From sequence record NC_028448.1: 64,000 bases of DNA; one strand, given 5' to 3'. Every line of letters starts with the position of its first letter. Position 1 is the first letter of the stretch. Under the pieces are notes generated by a model. That model was not told the origin of the DNA. It ran no database searches and was given only the letters and a program-made list of their open reading frames with translations. This stretch comes from Escherichia phage slur14. This document shows, piece by piece, positions 12,042-12,986 of the stretch. Made by a program: the position numbers and the translations under genes.

Positions 12042-12117
12042 TGGTCGAGGCAGTAGGGATCGAACCTACGACCTAGGACTTAGAAGGTCCTTGCTCTTCC
12101 TTCTGAGCTATGCCCCG
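12042..12117 (-). tRNA. tRNA-Arg (anticodon UCU)
   Basis: Hand-folded cloverleaf; anticodon loop CUUCUAA; T-arm GTAGG-TTCGATC-CCTAC; CCA encoded. Confidence 0.85.
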
Positions 12118-12121
12118 TAAT

Positions 12122-12197
12122 TGGGGTGACCGATGGGAGTCGAACCCATGACTACGAGAATCACAATCTCGAGTTCTACCAACTGAACTACGGCCAC
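12122..12197 (-). tRNA. tRNA-His (anticodon GUG)
   Basis: Acceptor GTGGCCG/CGGTCAC, discriminator C73, anticodon loop UUGUGAU, T-loop TTCGACT, CCA encoded; no encoded G-1. Confidence 0.7.
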
Positions 12198-12311
12198 ATT
12201 AATACCTACTCCAACAATCAAGATGTCTTCACACGAAATTAAGAGAAGAGTGATCAGTTCAACCCCTATAATCGCGTCAAGTAGATATTAATGTGACAGT
12301 TGTCACAAATT

Positions 12312-12386
12312 TGGCGGACGTGATAGGATTCGAACCTATAACCAATCGCTTAACAGGCGATCGCTCTGCCATTGAGCTACACATCC
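12312..12386 (-). tRNA. tRNA-Asn (anticodon GUU)
   Basis: Anticodon stem-loop ATCGC-CUGUUAA-GCGAT; T-arm ATAGG-TTCGAAT-CCTAT; CCA encoded. Confidence 0.7.
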
Positions 12387-12390
12387 AAAT

Positions 12391-12477
12391 TGGTGGGGAG
12401 TGGTGGAGTCGAACCACCCGAGTCGCAATGACAATGAATTTACAGTCCACACCGCTACCTCTACGGGATAACTCCCC
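12391..12477 (-). tRNA. tRNA-Tyr (anticodon GUA), long variable arm
   Basis: 87 nt; anticodon loop CUGUAAA; 16-nt variable arm resembling bacterial tRNA-Tyr; anticodon stem has two G-U pairs. Confidence 0.55.
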
Positions 12478-12486
12478 AAATTAATT

Positions 12487-12561
12487 TGGTGGCCCTGGGT
12501 GGAATTGAACCACCATCTGGCGATTATGAGTCGCTTGCTTGAACCTTCCAGCTACAGGGCC
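12487..12561 (-). tRNA. tRNA with anticodon CAU (Ile2-type or Met)
   Basis: Acceptor GGCCCTG/CAGGGCC; anticodon loop CUCAUAA; T-arm GGTGG-TTCAATT-CCACC; one A-C mismatch in the anticodon stem. Confidence 0.65.
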
Positions 12562-12562
12562 T

Positions 12563-12638
12563 TGGTGCTGATTGACGGAATCGAACCGCCGACGTCCTCA
12601 TTACAAGTGAGGTGCTCTACCTACTGAGCTAAATCAGC
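12563..12638 (-). tRNA. tRNA-Thr (anticodon UGU)
   Basis: Anticodon stem-loop CCTCA-CUUGUAA-TGAGG; T-loop TTCGATT; CCA encoded. Confidence 0.8.
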
Positions 12639-12644
12639 AAAAAC

Positions 12645-12734
12645 TGGCGGAGGCGATAGGATTTGAACCTATGAGTCGCCGGAGCGACTGCCGGTTTTCA
12701 AGACCGGTGCATTAAACCACTCTGCCACGCCTCC
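12645..12734 (-). tRNA. tRNA-Ser (anticodon UGA), long variable arm
   Basis: 90 nt; anticodon stem-loop CCGGT-CUUGAAA-ACCGG; long variable arm; T-loop TTCAAAT; CCA encoded. Confidence 0.8.
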
Positions 12735-12736
12735 AG

Positions 12737-12810
12737 TCTCCATACAAGGATTTGAACCTTGGACCTCCTGATCCCAAATCAGGCGCTCTACCAAACTGAG
12801 CTACACGGAG
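12737..12810 (-). tRNA. tRNA-Pro (anticodon UGG), 3' CCA not encoded
   Basis: Anticodon stem-loop CCTGA-UUUGGGA-TCAGG; T-loop TTCAAAT; 2-nt spacer to tRNA-Ser, so CCA must be added after processing. Confidence 0.8.
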
Positions 12811-12820
12811 TAAATTAAAT

Positions 12821-12894
12821 TGGAGCGGATAATGAGAATCGAACTCACATCATCAGATTGGAAGTCTGAGGTAATACCATTATACGATATCCGC
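12821..12894 (-). tRNA. tRNA-Gly (anticodon UCC)
   Basis: Acceptor GCGGATA/TATCCGC; anticodon stem-loop TCAGA-CUUCCAA-TCTGA; CCA encoded. Confidence 0.8.
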
Positions 12895-12899
12895 AAATT

Positions 12900-12986
12900 T
12901 GGTGCGAGAAGTGGGACTCGAACCCACAAGGAAATCATTCCGCAGCATTTTAAGTGCTGTGCCTTTACCAATTTGACCATTCTCGC
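12900..12986 (-). tRNA. tRNA-Leu (anticodon UAA), long variable arm
   Basis: 87 nt; anticodon stem-loop CAGCA-CUUAAAA-TGCTG; long variable arm; T-arm GTGGG-TTCGAGT-CCCAC; CCA encoded. Confidence 0.8.

Follow-up and report, generated by a model that had tools for sequence, protein, structure and literature searches.

In the 64,000-nucleotide (nt) stretch of Escherichia phage slur14 that we analyzed (record NC_028448.1; hereafter, the window), positions 12042-12986 of the minus strand carry an array of ten transfer RNA (tRNA) genes. This array is almost certainly the standard tRNA cluster of the genus Tequatrovirus, in the form of a T2-type allele which lacks segB, carries an additional module consisting of tRNA-His and a structured leader, and has, in place of tRNA-Gln, a free-standing gene for an HNH homing endonuclease. 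The 1.2-kb array region is 100% identical to that of Escherichia phage slur03 (NC_042129, Tequatrovirus), in which the same ten tRNAs are annotated, and is matched in part by 915 phage records, with at least 80% of the array found in one place in 323. The array is an already known and annotated locus, and given the match to slur03 and the published genes of phages T2L and T6, the tRNAs that distinguish it from the T4 cluster are not new. We found no evidence contradicting the identification as a Tequatrovirus. As an accessory locus already studied in detail and sequenced in several hundred copies, the array adds nothing new by itself. Its variation, with segB, the HNH gene, tRNA-Gln and tRNA-His found in some phages and missing from others, is an example of how homing endonucleases are known to shuffle the tRNA regions of T-even phages. 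What may be new, and is the only unexplained part of the array, is the leader together with a tRNA-His that lacks the otherwise near-universal encoded guanosine at position -1 (G-1).

Across the whole window, the tRNA genes predicted by ARAGORN number exactly ten; all lie on the minus strand, none outside the array, and nine of these score 59.3-74.1 bits against the general tRNA model of Rfam, RF00005, for which the gathering score is 29 bits. From first to last, the genes are tRNA-Leu(UAA) (12900-12986; 59.3 bits), tRNA-Gly(UCC) (12821-12894; 65.8 bits), tRNA-Pro(UGG) (12736-12810 in ARAGORN, 12737-12810 in Rfam; 66.8 bits), the class II tRNA-Ser(UGA) (12645-12734; 62.6 bits), tRNA-Thr(UGU) (12563-12638; 73.5 bits), a tRNA with the anticodon CAU, called Met by ARAGORN (12487-12561; 59.9 bits), the class II tRNA-Tyr(GUA) (12391-12477), tRNA-Asn(GUU) (12312-12386; 74.1 bits), tRNA-His(GUG) (12122-12197; 65.1 bits), and tRNA-Arg(UCU) (12042-12117; 66.1 bits). 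CCA is encoded in the Leu, Gly, Ser and His genes and is not encoded in tRNA-Pro. By the ARAGORN coordinates, the spacers from Leu to Arg measure 5, 10, 1, 6, 1, 9, 4, 114, and 4 nt. With its neighbors, the locus reads [HNH open reading frame (ORF)]-Leu-Gly-Pro-Ser-Thr-CAU-Tyr-Asn-[114 nt]-His-Arg-[116-aa ORF]-rnaD-rnaC. The ten genes are real, and the observation from which this analysis started is confirmed in every detail: an earlier note had folded ten minus-strand tRNAs by hand, and ARAGORN agrees on all ten anticodons, including those of the His, Asn and Tyr genes that the note had singled out as absent from the classic T4 set. Covariance scores bear out His and Asn, whereas tRNA-Tyr does not reach the threshold of the general model and, after clan competition, is matched best by the tRNA-Sec model (30.9 bits).

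The T4 cluster (NC_000866, 70.9-72.5 kb), ordered Gln-Leu-Gly-Pro-Ser-Thr-Ile-[segB]-Arg-rnaD-rnaC, shares with the array its position, strand, and flanking genes; the core order Leu-Gly-Pro-Ser-Thr is kept, and rnaD and rnaC follow downstream in both. The corresponding genes are identical to those of T4 for Leu (87/87), Gly (74/74), Pro (74/74), and the body of Ser (87/87), and nearly so for Thr (75/76). Against these five (near-)identical upstream genes, the CAU and Arg genes are only ~65-70% alike, the CAU tRNA matching T4 tRNA-Ile at 47/72 positions and tRNA-Arg its T4 counterpart at 49/70. Judged by sequence, these two genes are different alleles from those of T4, and their divergence matches a segment of ~1.25 kb that SegB-driven gene conversion reportedly replaces when T4 is crossed with T2L. 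The eight tRNAs that the earlier note had listed for T4 (Gln, Leu, Gly, Pro, Ser, Thr, Ile, and Arg) are those of the T4 record. Its suggestion that the window has three additional ones between Ile and Arg holds insofar as Tyr, Asn, and His are absent from T4 and lie, together with the leader, between the CAU and Arg genes. The array is nevertheless not T4's eight genes plus three: Gln is missing and its place is taken by the HNH gene, the CAU and Arg genes are other alleles, and segB, which T4 carries between Ile and Arg, is absent from this region by the slur03 annotation. In addition, T4 has no ORF between Arg and rnaD, where the window has one encoding 116 amino acids (aa).

Comparison with closer relatives accounts for the missing tRNA-Gln. 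In Escherichia phage slur02, these ten genes recur in unchanged order, leader and tRNA-His included, at 99.4% identity. In this phage and other eleven-tRNA Tequatroviruses, tRNA-Gln is kept directly upstream of Leu, whereas slur03 has the HNH gene there. Similarity between the window and its relatives ends exactly at the 5' end of tRNA-Leu, beyond which slur02, T4, and T6 all have tRNA-Gln. The slur03 array is thus an eleven-gene array in which Gln has been replaced by the HNH gene. In the window, the tRNA-Gln position is occupied by an HNH homing-endonuclease-like ORF (12993-13625, minus strand), which is annotated as an HNH endonuclease in NC_042129 and whose match to the Pfam HNH family is weak (17.2 bits, below the cut-off of 21.4). 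The sequence suggests that this ORF represents a homing insertion which removed Gln.

The downstream half of the array resembles the T2-type cluster. The T2L cluster, sequenced in 2008, comprises Gln, Leu, Gly, Pro, Ser, Met, Tyr, Asn, and Arg without segB (Brok-Volchanskaya et al., PMC2330249); by this published description, it shares with the window the absence of segB and the succession of Met(CAU), Tyr, Asn, and Arg after a T4-like Gln-Thr block, and differs in retaining Gln and in making no mention of tRNA-His. The preferred cut site of SegB was mapped inside the T2L tRNA-Asn gene, and the core of its recognition site is GGTTCRANTCC (PMC2330249). The 3' part of tRNA-Asn in the window carries this core as GGTTCGAATCC (12326-12336), and since the region is also devoid of segB, it would be a SegB-sensitive allele, that is, a homing target. 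In T6 (MH550421), the order is Gln-Leu-Gly-Thr-Met-Tyr-segB, with segB directly after Tyr; Leu (87/87), Gly and Tyr (87/87) are identical to those of the window, whereas Gln is present and Pro, Ser, Asn, and His are absent from the region examined. Phage ime09 has the array as in the window except that leader and tRNA-His are absent together, Arg following Asn after 7 nt. The indel boundaries between slur03 and ime09, read directly from the two sequences, thus define leader plus tRNA-His (~190 nt) as a unit that phages either carry in full or lack altogether. In genome papers, tRNA-His regularly appears among the variable genes of Tequatroviruses (PMC13353012).

At the Pro-Ser junction, tRNA-Pro ends in the discriminator A73 at 12737, followed by CU and then by G+1 of tRNA-Ser, so that the gap is 2 nt; the junction, ...GGAGACTGGAGG (...AUGGAG-A-CU-GGAGGCG...), is identical in T4 and is as the earlier note had described it. 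A dimeric Pro-Ser precursor is the classical T4 arrangement, and to this extent the proposal of a dimer completed by CCA addition stands. However, tRNA-Ser ends in CCGCCA here (12645-12650) and in CCGTAA in T4, behind an identical 87-nt body. T4 tRNA-Ser thus has UAA where the window encodes CCA, only tRNA-Pro needs CCA synthesis, and the classical T4 requirement on Ser does not apply to this allele. The CAU tRNA has its best Escherichia coli matches in genes annotated as tRNA-Ile (81.6% over the full length), and its body is Ile2-like rather than that of an elongator or initiator tRNA-Met. It contains the C4:G69 and C5:G68 pairs, which are determinants for TilS. Given the tRNA-Ile matches and the sixfold enrichment of AUA codons in the phage ORFs (see below), the CAU tRNA is most likely an Ile2-type tRNA, with lysidine and reading AUA, as in T4.

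tRNA-Tyr, for which the general covariance model fails, folds as a normal class II cloverleaf in ARAGORN and is identical to the gene annotated as tRNA-Tyr in T6. Its D-stem is irregular, and given the failure of the general model, pipelines relying on covariance alone could miss the gene; the ime09 record leaves the homologous gap unannotated. The T6 gene has a demonstrated function, as it counters the Septu (PtuAB) defence, which cleaves tRNA-Tyr: T4, having no tRNA-Tyr gene, is unable to escape Septu, overexpressed T6 tRNA-Tyr rescued infection, and Septu cuts the phage tRNA-Tyr as well as that of the host (Chihara et al. 2026, PMC13096335).

The longest gap of the array, the 114 nt upstream of tRNA-His, had been passed over as a spacer. 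It is instead a conserved structured RNA element tied to tRNA-His. The 114 nt fold at -32.7 kcal/mol (z = -4.36). The leader proper (12198-12292, minus strand) consists of a helix, P1 (5' strand 12280-12292, 3' strand 12198-12210), whose closing pair is A:U-1, a lineage-specific P2 region (12231-12277), and a conserved hairpin, P3 (12213-12227), with the loop UCWUGAU and a covarying stem. Sequences 80-90% identical to these 114 nt precede tRNA-His in Jiaodavirus, Karamvirus, and further genera and are annotated in none of the records, and the helix was seen in each of the T4-like lineages sampled. When 16 loci from nine genera are aligned, T is invariant at -1 and a helix of 13-14 bp is evident whose 3' strand reaches -1. 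In 25 distinct sequences, the A:U-1 pair is found without exception (25/25), 96.6% of the P1 cells are paired, and 6 of the 13 pairs have two-sided changes, whereas slid-register controls on the whole tested structure (leader helix plus cloverleaf) leave only 37-47% paired. In this test, P1 is on a par with the stems of the tRNA itself. G.U pairs occur in the helix only on the tRNA-sense strand, and RNAalifold recovers both P1 and P3. In Kanagawavirus and in Aeromonas phages, the element is reduced to a bare 13-bp hairpin with a UACG or UUCG tetraloop; the other lineages have an insert of 62-81 nt in the helix loop, of which the middle is lineage-specific and P3 is conserved.

A one-mismatch search for helices abutting the 5' end of more than 100 tRNAs in these loci found them to be specific to tRNA-His, with 13-20 pairs in Tevenvirinae and 9 in the Aeromonas phages as opposed to 4-11 for other tRNAs. 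The single exception is a tRNA-Ala(tgc) gene on IMG/VR contig 650627007 (225 kb), abutted by a helix of 15 pairs. Collectively, these results identify the leader as a conserved RNA-level helix which is specific to tRNA-His, co-occurs with the missing G-1, and is inherited with the tRNA as a unit. [quoted passage not shown] Aeromonas phages Ah1 and Aeh1 have a similar hairpin ahead of the helix, whereas Karamvirus and Roskildevirus keep only its GUCACAU half.

The leader resembles no element with which we compared it. A cmscan search of 11800-13300 against Rfam 15 (E up to 10) gave no family match confined to 12198-12311, comparison with rnaC, rnaD, the tRNA region of T4, and the remainder of the window yielded only chance 10-12-mers, and our literature search found no paper on the element. 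The nearest analogy is with rnaC and rnaD, likewise structured non-tRNA RNAs inside the tRNA transcription unit; these differ in having no sequence similarity to the leader, in lying after tRNA-Arg without abutting the 5' end of a tRNA, and in being present here as separate genes. Several other identities were considered and rejected. A promoter is not apparent, as a consensus scan of the minus strand of 12198-12311 found no sigma-70-like site and inspection by eye of the Tequatrovirus leader found neither a T4 MotA box nor the late TATAAATA; the Aeromonas hairpin has a MotA-like AAATGCTTTC, but other lineages do not conserve it. A terminator would have a U-run after the helix, and there is none. 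A hammerhead-like CUGAUCA in P2 is off the core consensus, has no Rfam match, and lies in a region that is not conserved, and a T-box-like histidine codon specifier in the P2 or P3 loops is not supported, CAC/CAU not being conserved across lineages. Pairing of the P3 loop with the T-stem of tRNA-His was discarded as well, the T-stem varying while the loop does not.

The tRNA behind this leader reads aau/GUGGCCG...CGGUCAC-C-CCA, with U at -1, C73 and an encoded CCA. Its GUG anticodon and C73 are those of a bacterial-type tRNA-His, whereas the G-1 that would pair with C73, for an acceptor stem of 8 bp after RNase P cleavage at -2/-1, is not encoded; its absence had been remarked in the earlier note. 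T at -1 and C73 are invariant in the 25 distinct T4-like sequences, and from Tequatrovirus to Cinqassovirus all four stems are kept by compensatory changes and the anticodon loop is invariant. In E. coli, G-1 is encoded, pairs with C73, and is left in place by RNase P; without it, histidylation by E. coli histidyl-tRNA synthetase (HisRS) drops more than 100-fold, and its absence was known only from some alpha-proteobacteria (PMC5499578). Some alpha-proteobacteria and their phages resemble the T4-like phages in not encoding G-1 (PMC3064791; Mukai et al. 2017, PMC5389517), but their tRNA-His has A73 (or U73), matching a co-evolved host HisRS, and no leader helix has been described for it. By contrast, C73 is invariant in the T4-like genes, the hosts of which are enterobacteria with a HisRS dependent on G-1:C73. 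A literature search found nothing on tRNA-His without G-1 in enterobacterial phages. A shift of register, with G+1 acting as G-1, was rejected, as it would break the geometry of U8 and the T-stem and leave a CCCA 3' end.

When viral contigs were scanned with a pattern that ignores the acceptor end, the distinct tRNA-His genes retrieved comprised 34 with G-1/C73 and 19 with T-1/C73, 18 of the latter being T4-like genes with the leader helix. The missing G-1 is, however, not confined to T4-like phages, since tRNA-His of Mycobacterium phage Bxz1 (151-226), ~80% identical to the T4-like gene, also has T at -1, along with C73. It lies 2 nt from an upstream tRNA-Glu and has no leader helix. Further phage tRNA-His genes, on four IMG/VR contigs, have T at -1 and no T4-like leader, and three of the four do not encode CCA.

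To what extent codon supply explains the array was assessed from the codon usage of 65 window ORFs and of 39 annotated genes of E. coli, a small host sample set against large effects. The ratio of phage to host usage is 20 for AGA, 6 for AUA, 3.7 for UCA, 3.2 for GGA, 3.1 for both CCA and ACA, and 1.8 for UUA. Tyr and Asn codons are used 1.56 and 1.62 times as often as in the host overall (UAU 2.1 times, AAU 2.8 times). The codons of every array tRNA are at or above host frequency with the sole exception of His. Most of the array is thus accounted for by codon supply; of the idea that the His, Asn, and Tyr genes answer to codon usage, the part concerning Tyr and Asn gains moderate support, and the part concerning His fails.

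By analogy with T4, the genes would be transcribed as polycistronic precursors, to be processed by RNase P, endonucleases, and 3' exonucleases of the host, whose CCA-adding enzyme would complete tRNA-Pro. Most of the tRNAs would then read codons over-used by the AT-rich phage, topping up translation capacity late in infection, and tRNA-Tyr, as shown for the identical T6 gene, would also replace host tRNA-Tyr destroyed by PtuAB-type defences. Several findings weigh against extending this account to tRNA-His, or bear on the account as a whole: His codons are used at 0.62 times the host frequency (CAU 0.83, CAC 0.34), the gene lacks G-1 despite the more than 100-fold charging cost with E. coli HisRS (PMC5499578), and a consensus scan found no sigma-70-like promoter inside the array. 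Given the low His codon use and the missing G-1, neither role is established for tRNA-His, which is the odd one out, explained neither by codon supply nor by replacement of a cleaved host tRNA.

One alternative is that the tRNAs for Tyr, Asn, and His are not codon adaptations but primarily counter-defence spare parts, which replace host tRNAs cut by nucleases in the anticodon or variable loop. We consider this a serious possibility, although the balance of the evidence tips the other way. The three are among the four tRNAs with GUN anticodons (the queuosine family), the same set of four that forms the substrates of colicin E5-type nucleases, and Jiaodaviruses have the full set (Tyr, Asn, Asp, and His), which is also found in the array of Roth16. 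The presence or absence of these genes between near-identical phages (PMC13353012) is as expected for accessory counter-defence cargo, codon demand does not explain tRNA-His, and the Septu rescue was obtained with a T6 tRNA-Tyr that is 87/87 identical to the one in the window, T4 being unable to escape (PMC13096335). On the other hand, Septu also cleaves the phage tRNA-Tyr, so that protection would come by dosage and not by resistance; the enrichment of UAU and AAU makes codon supply sufficient for Tyr and Asn; and the literature covered identifies no defence system that targets tRNA-His or tRNA-Asn.

For the His module itself, we tentatively consider, as a reading with less than an even chance of being right, that Straboviridae, from Tequatrovirus to the Cinqassoviruses of Aeromonas, carry a mobile tRNA-His module in which G-1 is not encoded, C73 is kept, and U-1 is locked in the leader helix, and which would represent a not yet described route by which a histidine tRNA is made or used in a host that depends on G-1. 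This may be an alternative mechanism of 5' maturation or identity, or else the product may be a non-decoding tRNA-His-like RNA, serving as a decoy or spare part against tRNA-targeting defences. A non-decoding role is compatible both with the low demand for His codons and with the leader acting as a processing device. G-1 is regarded as the main histidine identity element of bacteria, and yet selection has kept a G-1-less tRNA-His with its leader across many genera in G-1-dependent hosts. How this tRNA is processed, and whether it is charged, would show how strictly G-1 is required in vivo, and the module might bring to light a processing signal not seen before or a new way in which phage tRNAs counter defences.

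More specifically, the leader helix could be a dedicated 5'-maturation or identity device for the G-1-less tRNA, stacking on the acceptor stem and holding U-1 in the A:U pair; it would redirect or control the 5' cleavage, for example such that an extra 5' nucleotide and its phosphate partly substitute for G-1, or delay the release of the tRNA. We regard this as less likely than not. The helix ends exactly at -1 and covaries, it is specific to tRNA-His among more than 100 tRNAs, its short forms have UNCG-type loops, and its G.U pairs are restricted to one strand. All but one of the 19 T-1 genes have the helix, the 34 canonical G-1 genes are without it, and leader and tRNA-His are gained and lost together. 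However, U at -1 is also the preference of E. coli RNase P in ordinary cleavage at +1; a stable helix up to -1 is expected to hinder RNase P rather than guide it; and tRNA-His of the Bxz1-type mycobacteriophages dispenses with both G-1 and the helix.

A role unrelated to histidine, in which the leader is freed by RNase P cleavage at +1 of tRNA-His as a stable small RNA with paired ends, the third beside rnaC and rnaD, appears unlikely. The closed structure with paired termini, the strong fold (z = -4.36), and the conserved P3, with its UCWUGAU loop and covarying stem, would be in keeping with such an RNA, and T4-type clusters already yield rnaC and rnaD from the same transcripts. Nonetheless, the bare 13-bp hairpin of Kanagawavirus and the Aeromonas phages indicates that P2 and P3 are dispensable, P2 is not conserved between lineages, and the leader is never found apart from tRNA-His in the loci examined. 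Finally, that tRNA-His is a decaying, non-functional passenger and the leader a relic of the recombination that inserted it is highly improbable: although the main HisRS identity element is missing, His codons are under-used, and the module is dispensable in many Tequatroviruses, the compensatory changes in all four stems, the invariance of C73 and the anticodon loop across genera, and the covarying leader helix indicate purifying selection, not decay.

The genes around the array are arranged as in T4, with 57A/57B, ipI, and trna.2-4 in the upstream flank and rnaD and rnaC, followed by e.8 and e.7, downstream. Between tRNA-Arg and the rnaD homolog lies the 116-aa ORF (11673-12023, minus strand), which matched no Pfam family and whose stop codon overlaps the start of the rnaD homolog. 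As this ORF is also found in ime09, which has no tRNA-His, it is not linked to tRNA-His. The homologs of the T4 stable RNAs, both on the minus strand, are nearly identical to their T4 counterparts: rnaD (species 2; 11559-11673) at 115/116 positions and rnaC (species 1; 11414-11552) at 137/139. Farther downstream, the consensus scan detected a terminator-like hairpin on the minus strand (11340-11363), with a 10-bp stem including 7 GC pairs and a TTTTT tail, which is probably the end of the tRNA and stable-RNA transcription unit.

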